A DNA stretch of 48,653 nt from Rotaria socialis (lineage: Eukaryota): assembly GCA_905331295.1 (NCBI GenBank), contig CAJNYD010000322.1:310001-358653 (forward strand), in the 5' to 3' direction. Below the pieces are notes generated by a model. That model had not been told where the DNA came from, made no database searches, and saw nothing but the letters and a program-made list of their open reading frames with translations. Of the stretch, positions 4,107-41,381 are shown one piece after another (position 1 is the first letter of the stretch; each line of letters opens with the position of its first letter). A program made the position numbers and the translations under genes.

Positions 4107-5210
4107 ATGGGAGAAAGCTCGAATATAACTGAAACCATAAGCGAATTCTATTATGCTTGCCGTAATAATGACATTGCAACGGTACGTCGTTTATTAGATG
4201 AATATTCATTAGAAGATTTAGATAAAATGGAACCTAATGGAAGTACAGCTTTACATGCTGCTTGTTATTATAAGAATATTGATATTGTCAAATTATTACT
4301 TGATGCAGGTTTTACTCGACGTGTTATTAATAAATACAAATATATGCCATTTCAAGAAAGTGACAGTGAAGAAGTTCATCGGCTATTTGTACGTCCTAAA
4401 ACATCGAATCGATTTGGTGGAGATATTTCATACGAACAAGAGAAACGCTTGTGGTTTATTATTGATGGAAATGAACAAAATGTTATTTATAATCGTTTGC
4501 CAGATATATATAAAGGCAATCGTTTAGAATATGGTACGTTTCATGGTGATAAAATTCTTCAACAATTAGATAATTATAATATGTCTAAGGTTGGTGTTAT
4601 TCGACGTCTTTTTCATCGAGCAATCAATGAAAAGGATTGTACGCGTTTAGTTCAAGCTTATACTACTGATACAGATTTTTTTAATATTGTAAATGATTAT
4701 TTAGTAACAAAAATAGAACAAAATGAAAACAATAGTAATAATCCACGATATGTTTTATCAGAATTTATTGATACAATTTATTGTAATCATCAATTACATC
4801 AAAGATATTCGTTTACAGGAAAATGTTATCGTAGTATGAAAATAAAATCTGCCAATGATCTTAATCTTTATAAGATTGGTGCTAAACTAATAAATCGATC
4901 ATTTATATCGACAACAAAGGATCGAACATTTGCTGAAAAATATGTCAGCGATCGAAATGCAGAAAAAAAATACGCAGCTATTGTTTCATTCGAAATTCGT
5001 TACTTCAATACGGCATTAGATATTGAGAATATATCCGAATTTCCGCACGAAAAAGAAGTATTAATGATGAATGATAAAATATTTAAAGTAATAAATATTA
5101 CAATGAAAAATAACTTTGATGTGGAAATTGAGCTACGTGAATCAAAATCAGCAAAAGTCGATCCAAAAGCAAAGCAAAGTACATTTTTAGGGTTTCTTCA
5201 TTGGAACTAG
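4107..5210 (+). CDS. Ankyrin-repeat + NAD:arginine mono-ADP-ribosyltransferase (R-S-E clade) domain protein, single exon, 367 aa
   Basis: N-terminal ankyrin repeats (FYYACRNNDIATVRRLL; GSTALHAACYYKNIDIVKLLLDAG). C-terminal ART motifs: CYRSM (Arg), FISTTKDRTFA (S-T-T) and FPHEKEVL (E-x-E). AATAAA lies just downstream of the stop (~5236). Confidence 0.85.
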   Translation: MGESSNITETISEFYYACRNNDIATVRRLLDEYSLEDLDKMEPNGSTALHAACYYKNIDIVKLLLDAGFTRRVINKYKYMPFQESDSEEVHRLFVRPKTSNRFGGDISYEQEKRLWFIIDGNEQNVIYNRLPDIYKGNRLEYGTFHGDKILQQLDNYNMSKVGVIRRLFHRAINEKDCTRLVQAYTTDTDFFNIVNDYLVTKIEQNENNSNNPRYVLSEFIDTIYCNHQLHQRYSFTGKCYRSMKIKSANDLNLYKIGAKLINRSFISTTKDRTFAEKYVSDRNAEKKYAAIVSFEIRYFNTALDIENISEFPHEKEVLMMNDKIFKVINITMKNNFDVEIELRESKSAKVDPKAKQSTFLGFLHWN

Positions 5211-6410
5211 TTTTATTTTTGTATACATACCTGCAATAAACGCACATGGACAGGAAAGAAAACAATTTCTTGTAAAATGATGAAATTATTGGTATTTCAA
5301 ATATTTCAATAAATGTATGTTAAGTCATTGACTATTAGCTGTCTAATATTCGATTTGGCAATGGACGATTAGAAAAATGATAAATCTCTATTTTTTAATT
5401 GTACTTAAACAAAAATAATCAAATAATTAAATTTAACATCATAACAATTCAAGATCGAGTACGCTTATTCAACAGTCAAACGAATTCATAATGAAAATAA
5501 GATTTATTTCAACTAGCTTAAATTCAATTTAATGCACGAAACTTTCGCGGAGTTAACTCATTTTTTTATTCGTAATGTTTTTGAAATATTGTTATAAAAC
5601 GAAATCAATAATTTTAATGTCAGGATTAATGAATTTTCGAAAGGCTTCAGATGTAAAGAAATCATTTTCAGTCAGTGGATTCGAACAGTACAATTCAATG
5701 ATACATAAAATACTTGAATACATGTAGTTCTAGTTGGATTCAACCGCAACCAGACAGAGCTAGTCATAGGGCTCTTACTTCAACAACTTGATGAAATTTA
5801 TTCGAAATCGGGCTTTCTTTCATGGCCAAGACAAGCCTATAGTAATTGATGTGCACACCGTTTGTTATAAAAATAAAACAGTAAAACTATCTTGTATATG
5901 ATAGACATAGATAAAAATATGTTGTAAAAGTTTCTTGACATAATTAAAAATATGATTATTGGATTGCTAAATTCAAGCGATCAAGTCACCTTTTAGTGAT
6001 AAGCATCATATTACAGTCTATATCAACATATTCATATATTACTTCTCATTTTTATATTTGCACAGTAAATTAGAAGGTTTGCAATGCAAAAGGTTTTTTT
6101 TCTCTTATTTTGTATTCAAGAGAAAAGAGAAAATAAGATACATGTGCATAGCCATGATTGGTATAGAACAAAAAAAAATGTTATAGCACATACTATTTTA
6201 TATTTCACTTATATACCTATATTTCTATTGTATAGAATAGATAAAAAATGTCTATTGATATGCTAACTAGTAATGAAATATATTTTTTTAATTCTATTAA
6301 ATATTATTAACAAGCAAATAAAAAAATAACTGAATCATAAAAAAAAATTACAAAAAGAAATCGTTTCACACAGTAAGAATCATTTGAAAAAAAGACAAAT
6401 TTTAACACCA

Positions 6411-8521
6411 TCATACAACCGGATCAACTATGATAGCTTCATCACATAATATAAAATAACCACGGTAATGTATTTCTTTAGGTGTTACATCAAAATGATA
6501 ATGTCCAGACTGTCCATGATCACTAAAAAAATGTGAATGTTCTAAACGAAAACCAGCATTATTGATATCATCAGTTAATAAAACAGATAAACAATTTAAC
6601 GGTGCAGACATATCATAAAATTTTAACCATTGATCAACTTGTTGTTTTCCCAGTAAATCTTCATTGACAAAATCTGGCATAACATGTGCTTTGACTGCAC
6701 CTTTTTCAATACGGAAGATTCCTCCAAGAGCCATTGGTTCCTTAGAATATTGTTTTAAACTACGTCTTATAGTTGAAATGAAATTATTTTCTTCTTCATT
6801 ATCATCAAATAAACGTTCTTGAACATCGATTTCAACTAAAATTGTTGATTTAGTACGATCAATTGATGATATCATCACATGTTGAAATGGGCCACATGTT
6901 TTTATTTGATATAAACTTTGGCATGGCTGTTCTCCTTGCGTTACTATTGAACTGTATGAACGTTGTGTAATGACTTTATTGTATTGATCAAGAGTCATAT
7001 TGAATACAAGTTCGCCATTAGTATTAAGATATGTTCCATCAGCAGCACCTGGTCCAATGACAAGTGTTTCTTTATTATTAATATGTAATTGATCAAGCAC
7101 ACTTGACATATCAAAACGTATTGAATGACCATGTTGAAATTCAACATTTTTTGCTCCACCTATTCATACAATCGAAATTAAATCGATCAATTTTTGCAAA
7201 ATAATTGAACAATTTACCTAATTGACAAAACATTCCATTTGTTCCGAGACTTGATCCTGCTAAATTCCAAGGTTCAGCAGATAAATCCATCTTGTTTACT
7301 TCATTATTTTGTACTAATCTTACTTTAACATGTTTATAAACTTGTTTTAATTCTTTTTCAATGGCTTGAATCATTGATTCTCCTTGATCATTTGGTATAA
7401 ATAATGGATAACGAACAATACGATAATCTCGATCAGTATATGTTTGCTTATGTTTCGCCAAATCTAATAGACGTTGATCACGCCATAGTTTTTTATCAGT
7501 TAAGCCACTACCATTTTCACCTACTGGATATTTTGAACGAAAATATTTATCAACTTTTTCGATAGTTTCTTGTGTCCAATCAGATGGGAAATTCATATCA
7601 GCTAAAACACGTTGCATTGATGAACCATATCGATCAAAATCTATTTGTATAAAAAAAAGAGAAAATTCATCAATACATTTTTCTTTTTTGAATTTATCGA
7701 AAAAAAACAGTAAATACTCTACAGTCAATAATTCCTTTTGGTGCATTGAGATCAATTGTTTGAAATGGTCCCATAAATGACCATCGGCATGCTAATCCAT
7801 GTGTTATTGCTCGATCAACATCTTCAGGTTCAGCTATTCCATCTTGGACTAATTGCAAAGCTGATGAAAGAATAGCGTATTGAAGACGATTTACAACAAA
7901 ACCATCAACTTCTTTTTTAAGTCGAATAGGTTCCATACCAATCGAACGATATCTTTCCATAGCTAAATCAACAAAAGCTTCATCTGTCCATGGCGCACCA
8001 ATTATTTCAACAAGTGGAATTGTTGTTGGTGGATTTATCGGATGTCTAAATAAAATATCAATGAATAGCATGTTCACATATTGTCAATATTGAACTTACG
8101 CAACAATACAACGATTTCTTGTTGTCATCTGTTCAGTAAATTTCGATGGCATAATACACGATGATGAACTTGCAAATAAACTATTCAATGGAATGATTTT
8201 ATCGAGCTGTAAAAATAGATTTTTTTTCATTTCAACATCTTCAGGTATACATTCTTGAACATGATCAATACCTTGCCGAAATAATTCGTTTAATTTTTCT
8301 TCATCTTCAATTGTGTAAACATGTTTGAAAATATCATCTACTGTTTGATTAAATAATAAATTAAAGCGATCAAGTTGTTCAAGTTGTTGACGAATATCAG
8401 CTAGAGCTAAAGTGAGCATCGATGGAATGGCATCAAATAGATAAACATCATGTTTAGTTCGAGCAAATATTACACTCCAACAACGACCAATCAGTCCCGA
8501 GCCAATTATTACTACACGCAT
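6411..8521 (-). CDS. CRYL1: Fusion of L-gulonate 3-dehydrogenase (lambda-crystallin/CRYL1, 3-hydroxyacyl-CoA dehydrogenase family) and C11orf54/DUF1907 zinc enzyme; 4 exons, 638 aa
   Basis: Exons 8521-8100, 8045-7723, 7640-7218 and 7159-6411 are joined by GT-AG introns with compatible phases (1917 nt = 639 codons). The N-half has GSGLIG (Rossmann), QECIPE, AHPINPP, GFVVNRLQYA and WRDQRLLDLAKHK. The same exon continues without a stop into DUF1907 (DLSAEPWNL, LGGAK, IGPGA, KAHVMPDF, RLEHSHFFSDHGQSGHYH). Confidence 0.9.
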
Positions 8522-8616
8522 ATCTACAATAAAAAAACAAACGAACAATAAAGAATTCATACAGAAACTACTCTATCAATATTTATTCGTAAAAATACAC
8601 AAATACATTATTAATA
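8522..8616 (-). promoter_or_regulatory. 95-bp intergenic spacer containing the unc-79 polyA signal, a U/GU-rich tract and a 3' splice acceptor 2 nt before the CRYL1 ATG (putative trans-splice site)
   Basis: On the minus strand, AATAAA at 8587-8582 is followed by tttattgttcgtttgtttttttattgtAG (AG at 8525-8524) and then AT-ATG. Confidence 0.6.
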
Positions 8617-11600
8617 TTATAAACTATAAAATTGTGCAGCATGACTTGACTGTGTTTCGATTTGTCCAATTTTAAATTGTAAACGATTAAGCCATTTGAG
8701 TAAAATAGCTAAAACACACACACATATATATATATATATAAACTATTTGCCATTCTAAAAACAAATTAGAAGATTTTTTCAACATACCATACATAAATCG
8801 TAAATCTCCTTGTGTTTCCGATGATGGTTGATGATTTAAACATGTTTGAAGACGAACTTGAACATGAGCCGGTAATTGACTCTGATGTGTATATAAAACA
8901 GGTACCCACATAGCAAATAACTATTGAAATGTAAATAAATTAAAAAAACATTGGATTGACTGTATAAAAAATAAAAGATAACATACATTAGCTAATACTA
9001 TTGAATTTATTTCTTGTAATGCCTCAATTAAACTTAAGAAATGTAAATTAACCATCTCTGCAAGCTGAAAATGAATAACAAAAAGTAAATATTATTTATC
9101 AAAATAAACAACAAAAAAAAACAAATAACGATCAATATAATTAAAGCTTGATATAGACGCACATATTTAAATGTATGACATCAAAAATACCTCACGATGT
9201 TTGTTAGGACTTTCTTTATCCTGAAATTTATTATTGGTGTTTCATTTTTATTTCTTCTCATCGAATTCTTGTTTCTTTTTCTTTTTAATTTTAAATACGA
9301 AAAATAAAAAGAATGACTATGTACTTACCACTTTTGAATGTGACAGTAAATGAAGTATACCCGGTGTAATACGAGCCCAAAAATCCATAATAGCTACTAA
9401 TGCTTCAGGATCATGTCCTCGGTTAACTTGCTCACAATACATTGTCCATAACTGAAATATATAACAGAAAACAAAAATTAATTTTAAATCAAATAATAAA
9501 ATTAACTTAATATATCTTACTTGACAAAGTATAAATGAATGAAAAAGAGATGACATATGAATAACAGATGTTTTCGATTGATCAGCAAAACCAGTTAAAA
9601 TATATAAAATATAATCAGCTATTGATTGACTTGCATCAACAGGTATTGGATGACATATTATTGTTCCTTCATTTCGTGTTATAGCTGCATGTGTTAATGA
9701 ACCGATCATTAACCATGAAAGAAATCTTATACGATCAATGCAATCAACAAAATCTTTGGCTCTAAAAAGCAACAATAAAAATACAGATACTTTTTTTACA
9801 TACATAATAATAAAAATACAAACCCTTGTTGTACAGAAGTAGGAGGATTGTAAAGCCATGGAAGAAAACGAACAATTGCTTTTGAATCTCTTTGTCCACC
9901 TTTAGTAAATTCTAAAGCAAGATATTGTGCAAGACCAGCTTTTAATTGGCCGCCTAATGTATCTTCTGTTAAATTTGATAATTGTTGTTTTTCGCTTTTT
10001 TCTTTCATTGTACTCTATTGAAAGAAAACAAAAACCAGATAAATTTCTGTATTATTAAAGTATTTGTTTAGCTTACTTTAATTTTTGTTATTGTGTGAAT
10101 ATCAGCAATAAATGCAACTGTTTCATTAAGATAATGTTTCATACATTCAGCTCCATTTGTTGTTACCTAATTTGTAAAGAAAAATTTTAAAAATTCGTTC
10201 AGAAAAATTCTATTTCACAAAAGTAAGTAAGAAAGAAAGAAAAAAAGAAAAATATCACAGCACTAGTATCACAAACGCACAACATTATGAGGATCATATG
10301 CACGAACGTCATCGCTGACAATGGCCGATGCATGAATTGTACCACCCGAATCAAGTAAAATTAACTAAATTAATATTGAAAAACATTTATTTCGATAAAA
10401 GAAAAGAAAAACTATAAGAAAGCAATTTTTACTTGAATCATTAGAAGTAAATTTCTATCTGGACATGGATATCGATGAAGCATAGCTTCAACAAGAACAT
10501 TTACAATACATCGTGGTAGTAGAAATTTTTCTCTATCCTGTCATAGGAAAAGAAATTAAAGATTATTATAAAAAAAAGTTTTCTATTGTCTTGTATGAAA
10601 TGTTTACTCGTGTAAATGTTCGATTACTTAACGAACATAATTCAATAATATGTTCCAATTGAAATGTTCCATTTCGTAAGATAAATGTTAATAGTTTTGA
10701 AAATGGATCAAGAACAAGTCGCACATTTGCTATATATGGTACTTTGAGTATATTCATCATAATTCGAAGTATGGGTGTTAAATCATAAGTAACCTGTGTA
10801 CTTGATTTAATCGTCGTATAAACTCGTGTTAATTTATCAAATAAAAAATCAAATTCAAGAAATACACTTGTCCATAATTGGATCGGAGAATCGATTGGAA
10901 TATATTCCATGAATTGTGCAATATTGCTGAGTAATGTTGTACAAATGTCAAGAGACAGGCTTTTTTGTTTATTCATGTCCTATTCATTGGTAAAGATACA
11001 GAAAAAATAATAATTATATATATATATATATGAATTTCATCTTGAAACAATATTTCGATATTCAAAAGTTGCAGATGTCAAGAAAATGTTTCTAAATTTC
11101 TTTGCCCGTAAGTTCTACATATGTGATAGGAGAAATATGCAGCAATGCTAATGATTGTCATCGTAGACAGATACACGATTCATTCTTAAAAAATAGTACG
11201 TAGACCAGTCTTGTAGAGCACTGCATTGGTATAGAGGTTTGTGTAAACTAAAATCTAAGGGCTTAGTTTCTCTCTGATAGAACATAAAATTCAGCTACTT
11301 TCTTAAAATAATCTTCGCCGTCGATATAATCGAAATTAGTATAAGATTTTCAGTTTTTTTCCTATGATTTCATTGTTTTAAATATTGATCTACGTCTATA
11401 TTTATGATCTGTTGGCTGGTTGACCATCACGGTAACATTTCTAAATACGAGATTTATAAAAGAGAAAAAAAACCTACATTGAGAAGCCATTTAAGTGCAA
11501 TAATTGAATTGAACTCGGGAAAATCATTCAGTGATAAAGCAATTGTATGTAATAGTCTTTCATCTGAAAACAAAACACACCATAGTCTCAATTGAACTTA

Positions 11601-14600
11601 TAGAAATATATTCTATCGAATACAAACCTCGAAAATTTTGTTGAAAAAATTGATAAGAAATATTATTCGCAGCTAATTGTTGAAATGTACAACGAATAAA
11701 TTGTTGCGCAATACTTCTTGAATTAGCTGGTGCGACAACAGTCGAATTTTCTTGCCATGTATATATATGAGATGCAGCAACTCTTCCAATGGTTTCAATC
11801 ATATCCATGAGTAATGGTGCTGCAATAGCTGGTTCACGATGAACAAGTGTTCCACATACAATTATACAATAACCAATACATTCTTCATTGTAATATTCAA
11901 TCGGTTGTCCACATTTATCACATTTAGGTGCAGCTATCATTTGATTATGTAAATCTGTATCAGCATATGGATTGTCTGATTCCTCGTTCGTTGCTGTTGC
12001 TGATCGTTTAACACCTGATGATGTTGTAATACCAGCTTTCAATGGACCTTGTGATGATGATGTACGTGTTGGACGACTGAAGATATTTCCAAAAACAAAG
12101 TGTTAACAATATAAACATAAGAAAGAATTCTATTAACCTGAGCGTTGGTGATCGAACATTTGAATCGTCTTTATGTTTAGTTTTTTTACTATAATAACTT
12201 GGTTTTAATTTTCCACCAGGTGCCGCACCGCCCATACTAACTAATGTTGATGAAGATAATGATGTTACTTTAGGAGTTTTCGGAGGACTTTCTTCTGTAA
12301 AGAGAAAAATTAAATCACATGTATGAACTAACATTTCGGATTAAAAAACTAACCTTTGAATCCACCGACACTAGGTTTAAGTAAAACAGTTTCAAGTTTA
12401 CCACGTTCAGCTGAATAAATAACACGTGACAGTTCTTTGACTCCTATGAAATATTTACTTTTATCAAATTTATGTGATGACATAAAAATAATTTATTACC
12501 TTTGATACCCTTCGCGTCAAGTTCAGTTAATTTTTCTGTTGGTAAAATTTGTGTTGTTGATGATGCTGTTCCAGCTGATGTGCCGGAATTTAAACCAGTT
12601 GCACTAGCTGTTCCACTACTAGCAAAAAAACTTTTCAAAAATTCTGTGTAAGATCGGCCAGTTGAAGGCATTTGATCTTCTGTTTGTCGAATTGTTAATG
12701 GTTCATCAAAGCATTCTATTTCGGGTTTATAAAATCTATTTTAAATCAAAATCTATAGAAAAAAAAAGAATAGAAGCTTTTTACGAATTACTTTGCTTTA
12801 ACTTTTTTCGGGGGTGATAATAATCTAAAACGTTTATGTTCAGCAATACTCGCTGATTCTGATTGTGTGTCACCTTCTAAATCATAACGTGTACCTAATT
12901 CATTTAGTTCTACTTCGCGTATATCATCAAATGGTCGTGAAGATCCTTGAAGAAATTTGTATAATTTTATTTAAATTAACTTGTCAAACAAACCAAAAAT
13001 TCCTTACCTCTTCTTGAGCCCGCTACTTTTGGTGTAATTCTACCGCTAAGACCGCAACCAGTTGCACCGAATGGTGGTGTTTCACATTGATGATAATGAC
13101 TTACAATTGTGTTCATAGCAACACGTGTTAAATGTTGAATTGTCACCGCATTTGATGTATATTGATACTAAACATAAGTTTTAAATAAATATTCACTTAT
13201 TTTTAAATAACAAAAAACAATATCAAGAATATTTACTTTATACAAAATAATAATAAGAGTCATCAACCATGAATCTCGTAGACTAGGGTCAATTCGTCCA
13301 AGCGTATTTGATGCACAGATATGATCATAAAATTGCATGGTTGCATTTGAACATGTAGAGAATTGTAGAAATGAGAGAAAAAATTGTAAAAGTATACTTC
13401 CAAGATTAAAATTATAATCAAGAACTTTAGGTAAATTAGATAAAAAAGCATGAAAAACTGGACTTCGTCTAGAAAAATAAAACATGATAATAGTAGAATA
13501 TATTTAAATAGATAACAACAAACCGAATTTTGCTTGGTAGCGTAACAAACGTTCGATTTGTTTGATTATAACCAAGTAACGAACATATATGTCGAACAAC
13601 AACATTCTAGGAAAATTAAAACGAAGCAGAAATTTTAAGAAATAATTAATAGATTTGGTTTTACTTGTTGCTTAAGCATGATTCGATCTTCGTTAACTTG
13701 ACTTTGATCATCTTTCATCATAAACTACAACAACAACGACAACAGCAACAAAGAAATGATTTTCTCTTATTTTAAATAGTGAACAAATTTTACTTTCGTC
13801 AGTAAATTAACCAACAATTGTAGTGTTGATTTGTCACTATTATCAACAGTAGGTGAAATAAAACTTCCTATAGAATCTGTTTCAATTTTGTCAGTGTTAT
13901 TGTTAGATGGTTGTGAATTAACTATTGTTGTACGTCGATGATGTGTGAGAAATCTTGCTGATGTTGATATCGGTTTAATTGAATCTGTTCTTGCCATAGC
14001 AAAACGTATTTGATTTAATTTACGAATAAAATGTTCACTTTCAGTATTAAAACCACCAATACTTTGTGGACTTATTAATTCGCCTGATTCTTCCATATTA
14101 ATTTGAGATTCAATTGATAATGTATCAAAACGATTAAGAAAATATTCCCAACTTAAAATTTTTATTGTTGAATTATTTCTTAATAATATCGTATAAAGTT
14201 TCGATAGACGATGTAATATTATTGAACGATCATTTATTACAGTATCGAATTGAAATTCAAGTGAACACATGACACTTTTAAATGATGCATCGCCTAATGT
14301 CTCTAATGAACACATGGCTTTTTGACTGACAGTAGGCTCAACGTCTTCGATTGAAGTTATTAAATTGAGAAAAGCATAAGCAAGTACAGATAGAACATTA
14401 TAATTATTTTTGATTAATTTTGGTTTAAGTAGTGAATAAAGCGCAATAACTCGTGTGCCTAAAACAAAGAGAAAAGAAAAAAGTTTATTGAAACGTCTTT
14501 ATTCGTTAAAAAAATAGAATTTTCTAAAGCAAGAGAAAGCATATTAATTTACCAGCTGATGAACGAACTTTCCAATGTGTACTTGAAAAATCTCGTTCAA

Positions 14601-17600
14601 GTATATCCCATAAAGCAGTTTTTCCAGGTTCATAATTAAGTGCATGAAGAAGTAATGGTACACAACATTCATTAAGATGACCATGTCCCAATGCAAGAAT
14701 TTTCCAAATACTAAATTAGAAAAAAAAACGATCAATGATATAGTTTTTATAAAAATAATAATTAATTTACTGTGGAACAAGTAGCTTTTCAAGACAATAC
14801 GAAAGAAAACCTCGATTATCTTTCGCTGCTGTTTCTAAACATTCATCATTTAAAATCAATAATTTTAAGCAACATAATAAATAATAGAGTGCATCAATAT
14901 CAATGATTCGGTCGAGTTCCTAAAAAGTAGAAAATTTTATCATTCAGAAAACTTCTTTTCTGTATCTACCTTGAGAACCGAATAAAAAAATTGTAAATGA
15001 ATATGAAGTGTATTGAGTTTAAAATAGAAGACACCCTGCGATGTGATCCATATTCCACCATCAGGATTATTTTCAACTTTAAGTTCTGATGGTGCTGTTG
15101 TAATTGCTGTTGTTGTAGCATTAGCATTACTAGTGGTTTCTTCATTATTTAATGATGTCGATGATGATGATAAACTTTGATTATCACCCGCTGTTGGTAT
15201 TTCAATACCTAGTCAGAGAATTTTTATTTTTATGCACATAAAAACAATGGAGAAAGAAAAAACGAAAGTAAATTGGTCACGGTAATTATGAAGGAACTAC
15301 GTTTAGGAGTTCGCCATTGATAAGTTCGTACTCTATATACACGATAGACTCAAGTGACATGCGAATAGTTTTAACATCAACAATACCATTAAGAATTTCT
15401 TGGGCAAAGCTATCATGATCTTACGGAAATTTCAATCTATTGTCATAGGATATTCTAATCAATTAATCGAAGCTAATTCAAACTGAACTTTTGTCAACTG
15501 ATAGATCTACTTTTCCGTAGAATGTATACTTTGAATAATTTTTCTTGCACACAATACTGCATTTTGAAAACTCAGCAAGATTTCAAGAAAGAGACGAGGA
15601 TCATATGCATTTTCAAAATTAATAACCGTATCACAACAGTACTTTTCTCAAAATGAACTTTTCAGAAATAGTTTAATTGCAAGTAGATTTATCGTTCAGT
15701 AAAATTTCCGATCCAATCATGATGAAGTGATTTTATTTCACTTACTGAACTTTGGTTTGCCTGTTGATTTAGCTGATTGCAATAATGTTTGTTGTTGTAA
15801 TAATTGCTGTTGCTTAAGTTGTTGTTGTTTAAGTTCGCTTAAATTTGGTAATTCAAGTTCAGGTAATTTTATTTCATCTCGTGGTGAAATATATTTGAGT
15901 ATATCTTGTGCTATTGAAAACCACAAAATATATTCTTCACAAAATGAACATTGACTTGATGATGTTCGACAACGATGACGACGAGCCCATGGTAATATTA
16001 ATTGTTTATTCATTAATGACAAAATTTCTTTTGATAGAGGATTATACATTCCTTGATGTTGTGGTGTTTGTTGAAGTTCCATCTAATAAAAAGAAAGAAA
16101 ACAAAGAATTTATTAACAGATATTAAATTCTAATAATAAATTAGCAAAAAAAAAGAATATTCTACTTGTTTTAATGTCATATCCACCATCATAATACAAC
16201 ATGTTGAATTAATTTCACTTTCATTAATAATAAATTCTTCTTCTTCTTCTTTTATAATTGAAACCATTTCTTGTCCAGTCATTTGTTGTAACATCAATTG
16301 ATGACGATGTGCACGATATGTTTCATATGTATCAAAAACGAGAAATTTATTTGTTGATGAGGATCCTGACATTGTTGTTAAACCGGCGATACCACCTGTT
16401 GGATTCGCTACATTTCCTTCATCTTGAGACAACATCATTAAATTTAAACCATTGTCCATGGATTGCTCATTTGATGATGAAGCTGCCATTGTATAGTGTT
16501 CACGGCGTTGTGCACGCGATTCAAGTTTTTGTAAAGAATTTGTACCAGTAGTAAATATTTGAACAAGCAATGGAACTGGTATATATATATCGATTAAACA
16601 TAAAATTTGTAACCATTGTAAAGCTTGTTCTTGAACACTAGCTGGTGCAGGAGATTGAAAACGATCGGTAATAAAATGATATAATTGATCACGTGTTAAC
16701 GATGATGGAGACATATCAGGATCTGGATCGAACATTTTTCTATTTTGTTAAAAAATATTACAAGGAATTTACAAATAAAATGAAAAAAGTTAATTACCGA
16801 AAAAGTAAATTTAAGTTAGTTAAATCATTTTCTGGTACTTCTAATCGAATTGATTCCATCCAATAAGGCATTATATAGTCCCAGATCTATAGAGAAAAGA
16901 AATTTCATTATTAAAATTCAATGTGAGAATGAGTCCAGCATCAAATCAAAACATTTGTGGTCTACTTGTAGTCCTTTGTTGATGACAAAAACTTTTACAA
17001 ATTATCATCAAAAAACTAATTTTAAATAGGCCTGATTTTTTACCACAAAATAGAATATAGCGAACTATATTTAGCAAAATGACTATTGTAATAAGATATA
17101 TTACTAGTATGTAAATGAAAACTAGAAGTCATCTCAATGAACAATGTATTTTGAAGAAATACTAGAGTCTTCTGAGAAAATAATGATAATACTACTTTTC
17201 GAAGTTCAAATTGAACGCCCGTATAAAGACAGTCCTTCAAGAAGTATATTCTTTCATAAAAGTTTCACGTCTTTTGATTAATTCTACTCTGAAATAAGAA
17301 TCTCAAATCTACCATCACACATGAACGATGTAAACGGAACACTTTTATCATCGCTATAGTCTAGAATATTCACAAATAACAATACTCACTAGGTACTGTT
17401 GTTCGATAATGTTTAAAAAGCAAAAGAGAAAAGGAACCTGCTTGATGTTAACAAGACAACTGTACAACTGTATTTTTTCGGGTTATTCATAAGAAACATA
17501 ATCTGGATTTAAAAAGTGATTTATCACTTACGAGACTGCTATCATAGGATATTTTTTTTTTAATATCGAAGACCGAAATGATAAACTTACTTCATATGTA

Positions 17601-20600
17601 ATAATGCCATCTGGCATTAAATCATATAATTTATTAAGACATTCAATAACTTGTGTTGTTCGATTCGCCATGGTTTCCCTAGAAATTCATAGATTTTTCA
17701 ATAGTTAAAAGATTTATTAGATGCTTTCTTTAGTTTTATTTACCAAATACCACCAACTTTTGCATATTCCACTGGATGTGGAAGAAGTAAAGCAATAACT
17801 AATTCATGATGCTCTTTCACAACTGATTTAAGCCACGGTATAACATACTAACGAAATAAATAAGTAAATTGAACATTAATGCAAATCCTTTATTTTCGTC
17901 TTACTTCAGATTTTAATTTGCCTAAAACACTTCCAATTTCATTTCCTGGTAAACGAACCGTTGAATGAAACCAAAGAAATAACATGCTTAAAATACGTCC
18001 AAACATTTCCTAAGAAAAAATACGAAGAAAAAACAAATTTTTATAATTGAAAAGATAAAAGAAAATGCTCGTACAGGTGGTCCATATGATGTTGGTTCAA
18101 TAAGACCCAAAATTAAATAGATTCCATATCGACTTAGTAATTTTCTTCCGACATCAATATCCAGACTTAAAAACATGGTTGCTGTATTATCAATATTTTC
18201 TGCTAAAATAGATTTTTTTTCATCGCTCATTGAATCAACAATACGTTTTTCTTCGTTGTTATCTGTTTCACGTAACAAACTAATTATAGCTTCGACACAA
18301 TGATTTTGTACGTCAGGTGATAAACGCCACATATCGATTAATGTTTCTTGATAGACATGATTTGAATCAATATGTCGTCTTTCATGACATTGGCGACATA
18401 AACTTATAGGATGATTACCATTTGATAAACAACAGTCAATTGAATAGCAAACAGCATGAGTGATCTTTTTATCTGAGATACATAGCTAGAGAAATTAAAA
18501 AGAGAGAAAAAATGTTTCATCTTTTTTGTTCTTTTATTACAAATCTTACTTTATTTTGACAGTGTAGAGAAATTTCTGATACAGGACAAAGAATATTACG
18601 ACAAAATTGTTGCACATCTTTCGAAGAGCTTTTATAACAATCAGTACACATGTAAAGTGGTGGTGGCATATTTTCACCATACTTTGATAAAAGAATATTA
18701 ACGCAAACTTTTGATGCAATATTTTGCCTGTGGGTACATCTGCCTGTTTGACATATTATTGGTTTTCGAGCTAAATCAATTCAAGTATTTTGATTATGAT
18801 ACGAGGAGTCAAGAAAACCAAAAAATGATAAATCCTTACGACTAAATTTAAAATGTACTGAACGTCGATCGATTCCAGTCGGATTAAGCATAGGCCAATA
18901 GAAAAAAAGTAAATTCGATGCGACAGCTCTTGCTGATGCAGCTCCATGTGCAATAACAAATAGAATATCCTACGAATTGAATTGGAATGTCTTGACAAAG
19001 AATTTTATTTTAAAAAATATGAATATTTGCATATAATTATATTTAACATGCATGAACAAGACAATATTTATGTGGTTCTAACGTTAAATATTTATTGAAG
19101 TCGAAAATCTCTATTTTAGACAAGCATCATGATAGTCAATGAGAAATATTTTGCCAAGATCCTATAAGACATATTCTTGACGAGACACTCAGCTTGTTGA
19201 TATACATGTGAATTACTCATGAAGGTAGTAATAAACTATTGTCAAAATAGATAACTACTGATGATAATATTATTAATAAATTCATTATTCAATAAGCTAT
19301 GATTTTCTTGTGTAAATGCTTCAATAGAAGCAAAAGAAAATAAGTAGGTCTTGATCGCAGTATTAGAAGTCTATAAGTACTCATGCTCATATACTATTGT
19401 TCTTAAACTAGTAGAATTTGACAGAACTCTTTAACTGGCGGAATAATTTTTATAAAATAGAAAATAGAAAAATTGAATTGTTACTTATCGGTTGTACTCA
19501 AAGACAAGCTATAAAGATATGCCCTTCTTATAATATCGAATATTAAAAACACCAAACTGTTATACTTTTTCTCATAACAAAATATCTTCTGTGTTACTGA
19601 ATATTCAAAACACAACGAATAAAACATATATTTAAGCTGAAATTTTCGTGCAATCCAATGAGTGCAAAACTTGCTCATGAAAGAAATTCAAAATTGAAAC
19701 TTCTCGATTTCATCTTTACATAAATATGATAACCATAGTGAAAATATTATGAAATTCTAATCACTTGTGAAGAATATTACAGGTGGACGAGCTCCTGTAG
19801 GATTTTACTAACCTTGTCAGGGTCGTCTTATTCGTGAAACAGTTATGTGAGTAGCGATTTCTTCTAGAGAATGTCCTTTTCTCAATCAATAATTATCAAT
19901 GTTACTGTGGGCTTTTATTCCATATGAACTACGCAATGGAAACGCATAGTATCCATCTAGAAATTGAATTCTAAGAACGATCATAATATGTGTGTTCTTA
20001 ATAACATAAGATACTAGTAGTCAATGTTATTTGTTTTCTTGTTCTAATTAAACAGAATTGAAGCATGTCTCTATAGTTTTAAGTCTACTTCATTTCCTTC
20101 AATTTCTTGCATTCTATCAAAAGCTCATAAATACATAAAAACATACAATCAAACCGTGCGATACGAGTACAACAAAAAGCAATGGAAACATTTACTATTA
20201 AAAACTCACATAAATCAAATCCGCTTTTAAACTCAATAAACATTCCATAATTTGCGCATGATAACCTGGAAGTGAATAATCATTTTTTGACTTTATCTCT
20301 TTAGATTATTTCTTTTCGTTCAATCGTATTGTCTTCATAAAATGATTTCTACTTACTCTCATTGTCACTGTTTTCAAAAATAATAAAAAGAATCGATGCT
20401 ATTGAATTTAATGTCATTGAATGTTCTGGATATTCCGTATAAGCTAAAATATTTATTAAAATGTAAATATAAAATTCATTTTAAATACTATGCCTCACCC
20501 ATATTGATTGGTAAAAGTGTATTACATAGTGTATCAAGTGTTTTTTTCTGAACAGATGTTGGAAATGTAGTTAGCGTTGTCGCGAATGTATATGGTAATG

Positions 20601-21080
20601 CATCAAGTAATTCATAAGGTAAAAATGGTGCTAGACACGCAAGTGTATTTATAATTGATTCTGCTGGTTCTGTTTCAATTGGTTGCAATAATGGTACAAC
20701 GTCGATGAGATTGATTAAAGAATGATACAGTGATGAATAATTTAATGATGGATATTTACTGATACGATAGGAATGTTTACCAGATGTTTGTTCTTGATTG
20801 TGATCAATAGTCATCTCTTTTAGTACACTAGAAGAAACAGAATTTTATTAGGTTCAACTATTGTGCTTTTGATATTTCTACCCTAGAAGAGTTAGAGTGA
20901 ATTGCTTGAGAACCAATGCAATATCATATGTAGATGGTAATGGTGTAACACCGCTAACTATATTGTTATAATAATCGTTAAGAGTTCGAATCTTAGATGA
21001 GACTAAATAAAAATAAAAATAAGAAATCCAGTCATTGTAGTTTTATATGTATATTTACAGGCAGCTGCACGAGTCGCCAT
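8617..21080 (-). CDS. unc-79: Protein unc-79 homolog (NALCN channelosome subunit), multi-exon
   Basis: The spliced N-terminus MATRAAAFSSKIRTLNDYYN (exon 21080-21059, next exon from 21002) and YRISKYPSLNYSSLY match UNC79. Internal blocks include PASVQEQALQWLQIL, GTLVHREPAIAAPLL, EDTLGGQLKAGLAQYLALEF, IRFLSWLMIGSLTH and DFWARITPGILHLL. The last exon 8708-8617 encodes AILLKWLNRLQFKIGQIETQSSHAAQFYSL*, the conserved UNC79 C-terminus. Confidence 0.95.
9191..9220 (-). other. Candidate 30-nt symmetric micro-exon of unc-79 (DKESPNKHRE)
   Basis: tttcAG|GATAAAGAAAGTCCTAACAAACATCGTGAG|GTattt lies inside an otherwise unusually long 264-bp intron (9065-9328). Both flanking junctions are phase 0. Confidence 0.6.
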
Positions 21081-21510
21081 TCTATCTAAAGAAGATAAGA
21101 ATTAATTGTTTGCCAAAAGAAAAATGATTCAAAATGAAAGATTATCTATTGATAACCTTTTCCCGAAAAAAGTCAACAATAGAAGAAAAAATAAACTAAA
21201 TAATAAAAAAAAGAACCATTTAATGCGATCGATCGATTCTCCTAGGACCTCGTGCTATTATTCTAAATAGTGTCGCTAATAGTTATAGAAATGTGTTCAT
21301 TTTCAAGTAGCGCTAATTTCGGAAATTGCAAATGAACTCATTCAGATTGGTTTATATTATTAGCCAACTCCATTGAAGGTCATAAAATCTATCTAATAGA
21401 TTCGTATCAGGCAACTGTGTTGTAAAACGCTTTTCGAAAGTTGAACCAAGAAGAATCTACATAAAGACTTACTTTATATTGAGTAGAGAACGATATTTCT
21501 AGTCGACAAT
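21081..21510. promoter_or_regulatory. Putative bidirectional promoter between head-to-head unc-79 and CUEDC1
   Basis: Only 430 bp separate the divergent ATGs at 21080 (-) and 21511 (+). The call rests on position only. Confidence 0.6.
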
Positions 21511-23771
21511 ATGGCCGCCTCATCGAGATCAGCAACCGTAGGCGAATTGCGTCGAATGTTTTCCAACTTAGATTCAGCTGTAATCGAAACTGTGTTAGCA
21601 GCTAATAATGGCCAAGTTGACGTTACAATTGATCATTTACTTACAATGTCAATTGATACTGAAAATGAAAATAATGTTCAACAAGTGAAAAAATTTCAGC
21701 TTAACTGTATATATTTAATGATACTTTTAAATGTTATAGGTGACACCAACAACACTACTTCAACAGTTACCAGCTGTTCTTAATGTATACGATGATGATC
21801 CACCACCTTGTAAACTATTTTTTCTTACTCCCACATTAGTAAATATTTTATGTATATTCATTCTAGATCCTGGTCATGATACAAAAGGTAGTAATTGTGC
21901 ATCATCAACAACAACCACCATACCTTTTCTTCCACAACGTTTCTCATCAAATTATCCGTCATCAATAAATCAAAGTCAATTAAAGAATATACATTTTGAA
22001 GAAGAGTAAATAACAGATTTAGTTTATAAATAATCATTTTTTTATGTTTTGCATTACTTTTGAAGTGCATATTGTCTACAAGATCTTCAAGTACGAAGAT
22101 GGAAAACAGCTTATGATCAATATCGTATTTGTTATATTGGGGATTTACCAGACGATTTTCTTCGAGTAAAATTAACATCCAAATTTGAACCAACAAACCA
22201 ATCGAAGGTATATAATTGTTTTCAATGATTGATCTTATTATTTTAACAATTACAAATAAATAGAAAAATATGCATGGACAACATGATAACGCAGCACGAT
22301 ATATTGAAGATGAACATTTAGAAGAATTTCTTCGAAATGAAGAATTTTTAAATGAACTTCGACGTAATCAAGATTTTATAACAACTCTAAATTCAGGTTT
22401 GCTTTTATTTATCTCTTCTTCTATAAAAGAAAAGATGACATGAACATTTAGATCAATCTACTCGATCAACAGCATCGAATCAACAAAATCGATCATTTAA
22501 TTATTTAAGTACAAAACCATTACCAATGCCAACACCACCAACCGTTGAAACCCCTAAAACGCCAAAAGTTCGCGCAAGAATGCTCCAAAATGCTCTTACA
22601 CAAATTGAACAAGGACAAACAATAAAAAGTATGAAGAAAATTATTTATTTAATATATTTTTAAAATTGCTTTTCTAATATTAAGCCTCGATGGTTCCACA
22701 AGAATCTATCACTCAAAACGAAAGTTATTCTTACGGAAAAGGTATTTGAATAGCATTAAAAAATTCGATTGCTTTCATTTTTGTTATCTTCTCTGAAGAT
22801 AATCATGACCGAATTCCACTTCCACCTGCACCATCTGCCAGCGAATTCGATCCGTTACGGCCGGAAAGTAATGAAGAATTTATTGCTCGCTTAAAAAATA
22901 TGGGAAAAAGTAATAAATTTCGATACGAAATAATGTTTAAGAAAAATATTATTATTTTTCAAAAGATTCAATGGACAAATTCAATCAGTTAGCGCGTCGA
23001 TTTTCTACACGTAAAAATACAACAATAAATCCTGGCAAATACTCGAAACAACCATTGTAAGTTCTTCTTGATGTCAACTAGATCATTATCAAAAATACGT
23101 ATATCAAAGTCAATTGTTTGATATTAATTCATTGAAAAGAAAGATACAATTCTTTGACATCAAATTTAGCTGTTTAAATTTTGATGCAAATTAGAAATAG
23201 TTAGCTGTTCCTTTTATTTTATTTTACGTTCTTAATTTCATCATTGCTAATGTGTAAAAACAATAGATACAGAACGTCAAAATATGATATCAACATGTAG
23301 AAGAAAGTGGCAAGACTGCATAGACATAAATGCAACTCGAAAACTAGATGATCAACAATAGTGATCGGAAAACTGCAAAGATAAAGAGGCTGTGTTGTTG
23401 TGCATCTCATTGATTTCATACTGTTAAAGCAAAACATTTTTAGAACAAAATTTTTGAGAATAACTTCAGATTAGGAACATGTATTTATTATTCGCTTAAC
23501 CTAGCTAGTATTGAATTTAATCATGAATGAAATTCTAAATCATTAATAAAATTTTAGTCTTATCAAACTCATGTGTTTGAATAGATCCTTATTTATTTTT
23601 GATTTATTTAGAATGGCAAACACATCAGAACGACAAATATTAACAAATGAATTCGATAGTGATGATGATCCTATTACATTGAACAACAACAACCCCGTTC
23701 GTTTTTTTTCTCCCTAAATATTATTTTCGTTTTTATTTTCATTTTAGAATCGATATCTCACTTCCGTCTAA
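21511..23771 (+). CDS. CUEDC1: CUE domain-containing protein 1, multi-exon
   Basis: N-terminal CUE domain (LRRMFSNLDSAVIETVLAANNGQVDVTIDHLLTM). CUEDC1 motifs IGDLPDDFLRV, YIEDEHLEEFLRNEEFLNELRRNQDF and FIARLKNMGK..KFNQLARRFS lie in downstream exons. Last exons are 23612-23696 and 23748-23771 (TAA). Confidence 0.88.
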
Positions 23772-27200: not shown

Positions 27201-28650
27201 AAAAGTATTTGAAAATATTTCGATTTCTACTTAAGGATAAGAGTTGAACCTTCGAATGCATTTATCCGTTTATTTAGTCTCTCTTTAATAGTATTGTTTT
27301 TTTTCCATTGTTTCAGAACGACATCACCAACGGACGCAATCCATTTGAATGGTGAATCGTCGACCAAGTACTGCTAGTCTTGTTTTTGAATAATAAAAAC
27401 CTATTTATAGTTGTAGACGTCGTCCGGACAAAGCTTTATATAAACCGCCAACTCGAACTAAAAGTTCTGAAGTTTTCGCTTCTATTTNGGAGATCTTCAA
27501 CAAAACAATAGTAGAAGCAAAGGAGCAAAAAGTAAAACAGCTCGTCCATCAGCTGAGCCTTATGTACCGCCATCCAGACGCAGCCAACCGGTGACCACAG
27601 AAACACTTTCATCTACACCTAGATCATCTGTTATTCAAAGCAAAAAACAAGATGATGGAGCGGAAGAAAAAGAAGATGAAGAAGAAGAAGAAGAAGAAGA
27701 GGAGGCGGAGGAGGAGGAGGACTGGGAAAAGTTATTAGAAAACAGTCAAAATCCTCTATATAATGATCTTGTTGAAGAAGTAATATATGCAACAATCTTT
27801 TATTCTATTTCAAAGAAAAAAATTTGTTTTTTTTGTATTCCAAAGATTCAATCTAAATTCAAAGACAGTGTTCAGATAGAAAAACCGACTAATGACTATT
27901 CTCAATGATCAGTTGATGATATACAAATAAAAGAAGCAGAGCTAGCTCATGTAGTTGAAGTTTCAAATTTCCCGTCAACTTTCCGTACTGAAGATCTTTC
28001 AAATTCATTCAAAATACTTACGTATAATTTGTTATATACTACATTTCGAAAATATTTCTGATTTTATTTATAATTGAATACTAGTCGAAATGAATTCGAT
28101 ATAAAATGGGTCGATGAAACGCATGCCCTTATCGTTTTCCCAGATGCTAACACGGGTAAAGATTAATGTTATTATTTTTTGTTTTCTAAACAAATATTAT
28201 TAATAATTTAGCATTGGATGCACTACAAATGGTACATCCTCTATTAAAAATATGTGCTATGTCTCAAGCCTCATCTGCGTCGAAGAAAAAAGCAAAGAAT
28301 TCACTTGGTATAAAAATATTAGTTTTCATCTGTTCAATTGATGCATTTTGGTTTTTCTAATACTATAGAATTTCTTCAACCTTATAAAACTCGACCACAA
28401 ACATCGTCGTTAACAGCTAATCGACGTATATGTGCTGCATTGGGTTTGAAAAATCCAATGAGTAATGATAAAACTAAAACTGAAAGACAAAAAATTGAAA
28501 CAGCTAGAAGTAAATAAATCGTAATTCTTGTTTTAACTTGAAAAGAAAGCATATTAATATTTTGTTTTTCTAGAACAAAAAATTCGTGACAAAGAAGAAC
28601 AAAAAACAGTTTGGGATGGTGGCGTTTTACCTGCACCTTCAACAACATAA
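24263..28650 (+). CDS. R3HCC1: R3H and coiled-coil domain protein (R3HCC1/R3HCC1L-like), multi-exon; carries an in-frame TGA at 27906-27908 (possible nonsense allele)
   Basis: MNGCYLTSDDEKFLDLITDELD...ILLFPSLSSRHRLLLHRL...FSFSVGEERTTRRTIIC is an R3H domain (exons 24263-24357, 24435-24596). After a 2.7-kb intron come RRPDKALYKPP, an acidic tract, the RRM-like HVVEVSNFPSTFRTEDL / FDIKWVDETHALIVF, and LQPYKTRPQTSSLTANRRICAALGL. Stop TAA at 28648-28650. Confidence 0.85.
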
Positions 28651-28841
28651 ATTCTTTTTATATTTATTTAATATTTTTTTTGTATCTAATCAAAAAATTT
28701 GGTCACAATATGTTCGATTATCTTGTCTTCTTTTTTTTTCTTGTCTTGCTTCCATTCAGACTTTTGCCTATGATGTTTACATATTCGTATTGGTGAGCAA
28801 ATAAAAAAGAATGGGATTACTTCGAATTTCTAGATTTTTCA

Positions 28842-29237
28842 ATGTCATTTCAACGATCAACTGAATCAATTATAAAACAATTATGTTCAGGAATATTATC
28901 GGGTGGTATTATTGGAAAATTGATAAGTAAAGGTCACTATGTTCTAGCATATGTAGCATTTACTTCAATTGGTTTAATTGATATTGCATATCATTTGAAT
29001 TATTTGAAAGCACATATAACACATTTAACATATGATCAATTAGCAAGTCGCAGAGACATCAGATCTAGATTTAACAACTTCCAACGAAGCGTACAAAGAG
29101 AGGTGCTTGATCCAAATGATGGTTTGAATCGCGAAGTGACCTGGCTATGGAATGATGTGAAAAGACACATTGATGGACATATCTATTTTGGAATGGGTTT
29201 TACCATGGCATGTTTAGCAAGTGCTGTTCTTTTCTAG
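28842..29237 (+). CDS. FUN14-domain-like mitochondrial outer-membrane protein (divergent), single exon, 131 aa
   Basis: The Gly-rich hydrophobic helix QLCSGILSGGIIGKLISK, a second helix ending IAYHLNYLK, a charged amphipathic middle and the C-terminal hydrophobic IYFGMGFTMACLAS follow the FUN14/FUNDC layout. The similarity was judged by eye only. Confidence 0.6.
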   Translation: MSFQRSTESIIKQLCSGILSGGIIGKLISKGHYVLAYVAFTSIGLIDIAYHLNYLKAHITHLTYDQLASRRDIRSRFNNFQRSVQREVLDPNDGLNREVTWLWNDVKRHIDGHIYFGMGFTMACLASAVLF

Positions 29238-39564: not shown

Positions 39565-41381
39565 GAGAGAGTCCACGAGGCGATCGAGGATTGGAAGCAC
39601 TCGATAAAAATTACATTTTTGATTTCATTAGCGCATTCGAAAGTTCCATGTGCGAAACCAGTAACCTGAAAATTTTAGCGTCTAATACCGTTTCTATGAA
39701 AATTTACGTAAGGACGACTTTGAGTACGGTTGTATTTTTTCGAGAAAAAAAACAGTGAAAATTGCTCGTTTCATTTATGTCTGTTTGTGTTTCAACAGAT
39801 CATCCAAATCTTTAAAGGAATGCGTTAAAAGATAGGTCATTCTGAGCTGGAAAAGGATAGATTTAAAGTTTTGTATATCAGTTACTTTTTCGGACTATTC
39901 AGTGCAACAAGTATGGGCACTGACAAAATTTTTCAATTTTTCACGACTGTTTTTTTACAATATATTTGATCCTATCTCTTCAATTTAAGCGAGTCTAAGC
40001 ATTTTTTGCATAGGTTTGCAGAACTTTTGATTCTGCACAAATTCATGGAAACATATTCAAAAAATGAGAGTATACTGGTATCTAAAAATAAAATTGCCTA
40101 GCATTGCTTCTCACCTAGTCAATACGGCATTGAAAAACAACATCTAACGAGAGAAGGCCACCAACTGTTCAATCGCTTTTTACGTTGAAGCTATTCTCAT
40201 TATGCAGCTCCCAAGGAGTTATGGATACGCTGAAAATATTTTGGGCGAATAGGTTGTTGTTACGAAAATAGTCCATTTGTGAGTTATGGTTTTTAGTGAG
40301 TGCCGGAACTCCCCTCCCCTCAGGAACCTTGAAAAAAATTGATTTTCGAATTTCAACTTGAAAATTTACATAGAAATACACCGGAACGAGAAGAGTGTTT
40401 CGTGACTGTTTCAGACCATTCTACTACTATTCCTATCATTACACACAGCTATTATGAAATTTTTATTTTACATCTTTTAAATATGGTAGCAGATTTGATG
40501 AAACAAACAAATTCAAGGACCAAAAACATTCACGAAACACTATTCTCGTTCCGGAGTATTTCTATGTAAATTTTCAAGTTGAAATTCGAAAATCAATTTT
40601 TTTCAAGGTTCCTGAGGGGAGGGGAGTTCCGGCACTCACTAAAAACCATAACTCACAAATGGACTATTTTCGTAACAACAACCTATTCGCCCAAAATATT
40701 TTCAGCGTATCCATAACTCCTTGGGAGCTGCATAATGAGAATAGCTTCAACGTAAAAAGCGATTGAACAGTTGGTGGCCTTCTCTCGTTAGATGTTGTTT
40801 TTCAATGGCGTATTGACTAGGTGAGAAGCAATGCTAGGCAATTTTATTTTTAGATACCAGTATACTCTCATTTTTTGAATATGTTTCCATGAATTTGTGC
40901 AGAATCAAAAGTTCTGCAAACCTATGCAAAAAATGCTTAGACTCGCTTAAATTGAAGAGATAGGATCAAATATATTGTAAAAAAACAGTCGTGAAAAATT
41001 GAAAAATTTTGTCAGTGCCCATACTTGTTGCACTGAATAGTCCGAAAAAGTAACTGATATACAAAACTTTAAATCTATCCTTTTCCAGCTCAGAATGACC
41101 TATCTTTTAACGCATTCCTTTAAAGATTTGGATGATCTGTTGAAACACAAACAGACATAAATGAAACGAGCAATTTTCACTGTTTTTTTTCTCGAAAAAA
41201 TACAACCGTACTCAAAGTCGTCCTTACGTAAATTTTCATAGGAACGGTATTAGACGCTAAAATTTTCAGGTTACTGGTTTCGCACATGGAACTTTCGAAT
41301 GCGCTAATGAAATCAAAAATGTAATTTTTATCGAGTGCTTCGTATGCGGAGGACATCCTCTATGCTCTGATGTGCTCTCTC
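39565..41381. mobile_element. Non-autonomous foldback DNA transposon (Kolobok-like: TTAA TSD, 5'-RR...YY-3' ends), 1817 bp
   Basis: TTAA at 39561-39564 and 41382-41385, with terminal GAGAGAG / CTCTCTC. Internal inverted arms are ~818 bp. No transposase ORF. Confidence 0.75.
39594..41341. repeat. Long inverted repeat: arms 39594-40411 and 40524-41341, ~112-bp spacer
   Basis: The arms are reverse complements in constant register (paired coordinates sum to 80935), with only about 5 substitutions seen by eye. Confidence 0.97.

Follow-up and report, generated by a model that had tools for sequence, protein, structure and literature searches.

How does a gene obtain an mRNA of its own when its start codon lies less than 100 nt behind the stop codon of the preceding gene? 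We met this question in a 48,653-nt stretch of the Rotaria socialis genome (contig CAJNYD010000322.1, positions 310,001 to 358,653; hereafter the window, meaning the whole stretch of DNA that was analysed). On its minus strand, a spacer of 95 nt (8616-8522) separates the stop codon of unc-79 (TAA) from the ATG of a metabolic fusion enzyme at 8521. An earlier note on this DNA had described the succession of unc-79 stop, AATAAA, T-rich tract, AG and ATG, and had interpreted it as the junction of an operon resolved by spliced leader (SL) trans-splicing. Our own reading of the sequence reproduced this layout. The hexamer and the acceptor AG are 56 nt apart, the AG is followed by AT and then directly by the ATG, and T makes up 65% of the 40 nt preceding the AG. 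The coordinates of all features are collected in Table 1.

Table 1. Features of the unc-79/enzyme locus in window coordinates. X1 to X3 are RNA runs and L001-L005 metagenome loci, both introduced in the text.
Feature	Position	Strand	Evidence
CRYL1 (3HCDH_N + 3HCDH)-DUF1907 fusion gene, 4 coding exons, 638 aa	6411..8521	-	Pfam; 3 introns removed in one contig each of X1 and X3
Trans-splice acceptor AG, SL joined to 8523	8524..8525	-	X1 and X3 contigs leave the window sequence at 8525
U/GU-rich pyrimidine tract for the SL acceptor	8526..8553	-	T fraction 0.50-0.65 over the final 40 nt in 6/6 spacers
Purine-rich block near the predicted cleavage region, putative role	8565..8575	-	Conserved in alignment
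unc-79 3' UTR, extent seen in RNA	8570..8616	-	Spliced X3 contig (close relative)
Predicted unc-79 poly(A) signal, AATAAA	8582..8587	-	1 copy per spacer; invariant in window and 5/5 loci
unc-79 last coding exon, stop TAA 8619-8617	8617..8708	-	29/29 residues identical in L001-L005
unc-79 penultimate exon	8788..8920	-	X3 RNA record; 44/44 residues identical in L001-L005
unc-79 coding region, multi-exon	8617..21080	-	Pfam UNC-79; 3' exons joined in contigs of X2 and X3; 5' end from sequence only, putative ATG 21080

The downstream gene encodes a two-part enzyme. Its RNA-confirmed exons translate into 638 aa without an internal stop, with the 3HCDH_N, 3HCDH and DUF1907 domains all in one spliced frame. 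The best 5 of 15 longer homologues share 66-82% identity with it and include proteins of the bdelloids Rotaria and Adineta; four of these, three of them named Rotaria or Adineta, are full-length (637-639 aa) with all three domains, the fifth is a 280-aa partial, and the start methionine is common to the fusion protein and all five. By this homology, the window is bdelloid DNA. A CRYL1-C11orf54 (BKGD) fusion is already known from 28 rotifer proteins (PMC12337341), and the predicted domain content of the fusion in the window, 3HCDH_N + 3HCDH + DUF1907, does not differ from it. In humans, CRYL1 and C11orf54 catalyze consecutive steps from L-gulonate to L-xylulose. The L-gulonate dehydrogenase and keto-gulonate decarboxylase activities were demonstrated for the separate human enzymes, and the rotifer fusion is cited there in favour of C11orf54 as the decarboxylase acting after CRYL1 in this route (PMC12337341). 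The passages on the fusion in that paper deal neither with the neighbouring gene nor with trans-splicing. An intronless gene with ankyrin repeats and an ADP-ribosyltransferase (ART) domain (4107-5210, plus strand) lies convergent with the fusion gene.

The upstream gene was identified by a Pfam UNC-79 match at 20491-20844 (E 9e-23); in other animals, unc-79 is mainly neuronal. Going upstream from the SL acceptor, the first 5' splice site is the donor of the unc-79 penultimate exon. The C-terminal exons of unc-79 (8617-10167, minus strand) are 97-100% identical at the protein level in relatives in which identity drops to 67-79% for the CRYL1 exon. They include a 30-nt in-frame microexon (9220-9191, minus strand) with canonical splice sites, which is 94-100% conserved in three metagenome loci (L002-L004) and is skipped in an RNA contig of run X2. 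At its other end, unc-79 stands head-to-head with a CUE-domain gene (21080-21511); the 430 nt between the two ATGs are modestly CG-rich and likely represent a bidirectional promoter.

We compared 17 assembled contigs from the best 4 of 13 RNA runs (X1 to X4) with positions 6200-10600. The X1 RNA shows one difference from the window, and the X3 RNA stems from a close relative. One contig each in X1 and X3 spans the enzyme gene, and since all three introns are removed, both represent RNA. At 8525 these contigs leave the window sequence. The 11 (X1) and 18 (X3) letters that follow, read on the strand of the gene and taken together with the shared AG, are the last 13 and 20 nt of the 23-nt rotifer SL (PMC3795323, Table 1). 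Over the 20 nt that are visible, the leader at 8523 is thus identical to the single published bdelloid SL, the first 3 nt lying outside the contig. SL letters were present at the junction in two of the four runs, which come from two studies. The X2 enzyme contig likewise starts at 8525, with 5 unaligned letters, and the listed X4 pieces end at 8391, short of the enzyme 5' end. Even with up to 3 mismatches allowed, an 18-mer of the SL did not match anywhere in the window. The enzyme mRNA is thus trans-spliced to the bdelloid SL at 8523, exactly where the earlier note had predicted that SL-bearing RNA would be clipped.

The end of the upstream mRNA was approached in the same way. A separate X3 contig joins the last two exons of unc-79 and aligns to 8570, 12 nt beyond the AATAAA, followed by 3 further letters. 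Observed unc-79 RNA and the SL junction are thus separated by at most 46 nt, where the 8570 end stems from a single contig of low depth, from a related organism, with no poly(A) tail visible. Among the pieces listed from the 17 contigs, none runs across 8570-8525, an absence that assembled contigs cannot establish. For unc-79, no piece was found in X1, and contig depth was 4.2 in X2 and 3.8 in X3. The depths of the enzyme contigs (14.6 in X1, 6 in X2 and 31.7 in X3) were considered as a hint of extra transcription and set aside, as contig depth cannot rank genes. Pieces of 31 nt at 9091-9125 were disregarded as T-rich low-complexity matches.

The individual elements of the junction are common in this AT-rich window. 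AATAAA is present in 19% of all its 95-mers, so that the hexamer alone is weak evidence, and for about 11% of window positions an acceptor-like site is present at a distance of 35 nt or less. Such sites occur at most 35 nt from the ATG in 4 of the 7 window genes, 3 of which are not downstream in a tight pair. The combination of AATAAA, T-rich tract, YAG and ATG was found once, at the unc-79/enzyme junction, with a filter that had been fitted to that site. The junction nevertheless stands above chance because the SL is joined in RNA at exactly the acceptor AG and because AATAAA and TAGAT-ATG are invariant in the window and in all five related loci described below. The remaining head-to-tail gaps in the window measure 191, 705 and 3441 nt.

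Conservation was examined by a metagenome scan that yielded 17 loci, five of them bdelloid-like (L001-L005; 67-79% protein identity in the first exon of the enzyme). L005 was left out of the alignments, being 99% identical to L004, so that four distinct relatives with 73-85% nucleotide identity in the same exon were compared. In all five loci, the last exons of unc-79 lie directly upstream of the enzyme, and the final 73 residues are 100% identical. No unc-79 exon match was obtained in the other 12 loci (27-53% identity, not bdelloid-like), several of which are too short upstream to tell. The spacers of the relatives measure 101, 104, 104, 135 and 135 nt, and each holds one AATAAA, 59-72 nt ahead of an invariant TAG/AT-ATG. 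None of the six spacers contains a donor motif by any of three patterns. Spacer conservation in related species, which had been put forward as a check of the operon proposal, was thus borne out, with gene order, AATAAA and TAG/AT-ATG kept in five of five loci. Compared with shuffled sequences, the spacer reached z values of 11.9, 8.7, 7.6 and 4.0 in the four relatives, and the last unc-79 intron 1.2, 1.8, 1.2 and -0.2. This shows that the spacer is under selection. The same conservation is, however, expected from a 3' UTR plus an acceptor whether or not the two genes are co-transcribed. At its contig start (6-116), L001 carries an inverted, slightly diverged copy of the unc-79 penultimate exon, likely an assembly fold-back of an allele.

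The leader itself has been known for some time. The 23-nt bdelloid SL was described by Pouchkina-Stantcheva and Tunnacliffe in 2005 (via PMC3795323 and PMC1925144), and its share of bdelloid transcripts is given as over 50% (PMC1925144) or 60% (PMC4824033); monogonont rotifers appear to be without it (PMC1925144). The passages devoted to the leader in PMC3795323 and PMC1925144 treat the leader and its frequency and contain no host-gene operon. Because the SL is common on bdelloid mRNAs and acceptor-like sites precede other ATGs in the window, the SL alone is no mark of an operon. SL-processed RNAs with several open reading frames do occur in bdelloids in the form of Athena/Terminon retroelements.

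In some other animals, operon membership has been judged by combining the SL with distance. The tunicates Oikopleura dioica and Ciona intestinalis and the chaetognath Paraspadella gotoi, all from phyla other than the rotifers, use one general SL on monocistronic and downstream operon genes, as the organism studied here would. Operons were called there from an SL plus a gap below 84 bp in Ciona and 60 bp in Oikopleura (PMC7986045) or below 250 bp in the chaetognath (PMC12460157), and the unc-79/enzyme pair falls within all three rules. Its gap of up to 46 nt compares with mostly none in Ciona and a median of 31-33 bp in Oikopleura (PMC7986045). The SL2-type operons of C. elegans likewise accommodate a poly(A) signal, a U-rich stretch and a trans-splice site in a short intercistronic region; however, their gap is ~100 bp, about twice that seen here, and they receive a dedicated SL2 (PMC7986045). 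A Ur element, made up of a stem-loop and a U-rich motif, is a further mark of that type; among the aligned spacers of this locus, U-rich columns are conserved. As the leader at 8523 is the general bdelloid SL, the unc-79/enzyme pair does not belong with the SL2-type operons.

From the SL junction, the two separate spliced RNAs, the gap of at most 46 nt and the conserved layout, the step to an operon is a geometric one: the acceptor is present on every unc-79 transcript, less than 50 nt beyond the likely transcript end. We therefore consider it probable that unc-79 and the fusion enzyme form a two-gene operon which, through co-transcription, would be the main source of enzyme mRNA. RNA polymerase II would start at the unc-79 promoter at ~21.1-21.5 kb, common to the head-to-head CUE-domain gene, and continue past the unc-79 stop codon, this single putative promoter serving both genes. 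The precursor would be cleaved and polyadenylated at a predicted position shortly 3' of the AATAAA, and the U/GU-rich tract likely doubles as the downstream element of this poly(A) signal and the pyrimidine tract of the acceptor. The uncapped downstream RNA, equipped with the U-rich tract and the AG but no donor, would then obtain both donor and cap from the SL RNA, giving the enzyme mRNA a 5' UTR of 23 + 2 nt. Formation of the 3' end and trans-splicing may be coupled in this process.

The earlier note had argued that the spacer leaves almost no room for a promoter. This holds for the spacer itself but does not extend to the last exons and introns of unc-79. An independent enzyme transcript must include the pyrimidine tract, and its start would therefore lie in or before the unc-79 3' UTR. 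The most serious alternative is an enzyme promoter inside the last exons, the introns or the 3' UTR of unc-79, with the SL removing a short outron and read-through from unc-79 being minor or partial, that is, a monocistronic overlap or a hybrid operon. We regard this as possible but unlikely. It would fit the frequency of the SL on bdelloid mRNAs and the acceptor-like sites that precede the ATGs of unc-79 and of two further genes. That the two proteins have unrelated roles also speaks for it, a neuronal gene being an odd driver for a metabolic enzyme. Hybrid operons are moreover known in C. elegans, where numerous genes in downstream operon positions possess internal promoters (PMC7725455). 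Within unc-79, the last two exons show less synonymous change relative to L004 than the earlier ones (19/69 vs 97/226, p 0.024), which could reflect an embedded regulatory element; the same comparison gave p 0.26 for L002 and 0.69 for L003, so that one of three comparisons was lower. The intron 9190-9065 is conserved like the spacer in three of three loci, but it flanks the skipped microexon, and its conservation is explained by splicing control of the microexon that is skipped in X2. In contrast, the last unc-79 intron is not conserved. A TA repeat in the window copy of that intron is absent from all four relatives, and the idea that it acts as a TATA box was dropped for this reason. The junction together with the last three introns is poorer in CG (4/363) than stretches presumed to be promoters (41/1268, p 0.028), but the comparison is weak, given that the stretches were picked by eye and differ in G+C. 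Finally, a start upstream of 8709 would expose unc-79 acceptors to the SL, and no SL loose end is listed there at the low depth available.

Two further explanations were considered. The acceptor might also serve in cis-splicing from the unc-79 penultimate exon, with the last exon skipped, to yield an in-frame UNC-79-enzyme chimera. The phase 1 donor at 8788 and the acceptor 2 nt before the ATG would indeed be in frame, and phase and spacing are the same in all four distinct relatives; yet such a match occurs one time in three by chance. No joint of this kind is among the 8 listed: the X1 and X3 contigs end in the SL, and X3 joins the penultimate to the last exon. The annotated orthologues are stand-alone proteins of 637-639 aa, although that search stopped at 2000 aa and could not have revealed a chimera. 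Overall, a chimera seems highly improbable. Least credible of all is an ordinary pair of compact genes, in which genome compaction left a short spacer and an upstream 5' UTR exon is cis-spliced into the 8524 acceptor. Introns are indeed short here (54-126 nt in the stretch examined), which speaks for a compact genome, but the other head-to-tail gaps in the window are wider. This arrangement had been named in advance as the one that would speak against the operon; the contigs show none of it, as the RNA letters upstream of 8523 are those of the SL and absent from the window, and it is largely refuted.

Elsewhere in the window, a second tight head-to-tail pair lies on the plus strand (28648-28842), where a multi-exon gene that we take to be R3HCC1-like, with no Pfam support, stops at 28650 and a FUN14-like gene (Atlas 0.90) begins with an ATG at 28842. 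A strong pyrimidine-tract CAG is located at 28759, 109 nt past the stop. No AATAAA was found between the stop codon and this CAG, and one is present near 28800. Judged by its sequence, this pair is a candidate second operon. In a stretch without long genes, two near-identical open frames ~350 nt apart (40169-40766, minus strand) appear to point to a tandem duplication or a repeat.

Operons seem to be undocumented in the rotifer phylum. The entry for rotifers in a 2008 table reads 'not determined' (PMC2481426), and a single citing sentence from 2025 names rotifers among the lineages with trans-splicing and operonic transcription (PMC12460157). Passages of PMC2776167 and PMC8557442 contained no information on operons of rotifers. 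No study of rotifer operons appeared among the titles and abstracts of the matches listed in our search, outside of which most subscription papers lie. The junction described here is real, conserved and trans-spliced; it is a good operon candidate, with a mechanism of a known kind.

More speculatively, and with somewhat less than even confidence, we propose that bdelloids possess a genome-wide class of SL-resolved operons, characterized by an AATAAA, ~45 nt common to the signals for 3'-end formation and trans-splicing, and an AG beside the ATG. In this class, unc-79 and the pentose-pathway enzyme would be an old, strictly single-promoter member, and the level of the enzyme would be set post-transcriptionally.

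To the SL trans-splicing recognized in bdelloids in 2005, this locus adds a concrete, conserved and RNA-backed operon candidate. Following the same two genes across the rotifer classes could show how operons originate after trans-splicing appears. If the operon reading is true, perturbation of the unc-79 promoter would also affect a metabolic enzyme, and gene annotation in bdelloids would have to be operon-aware.
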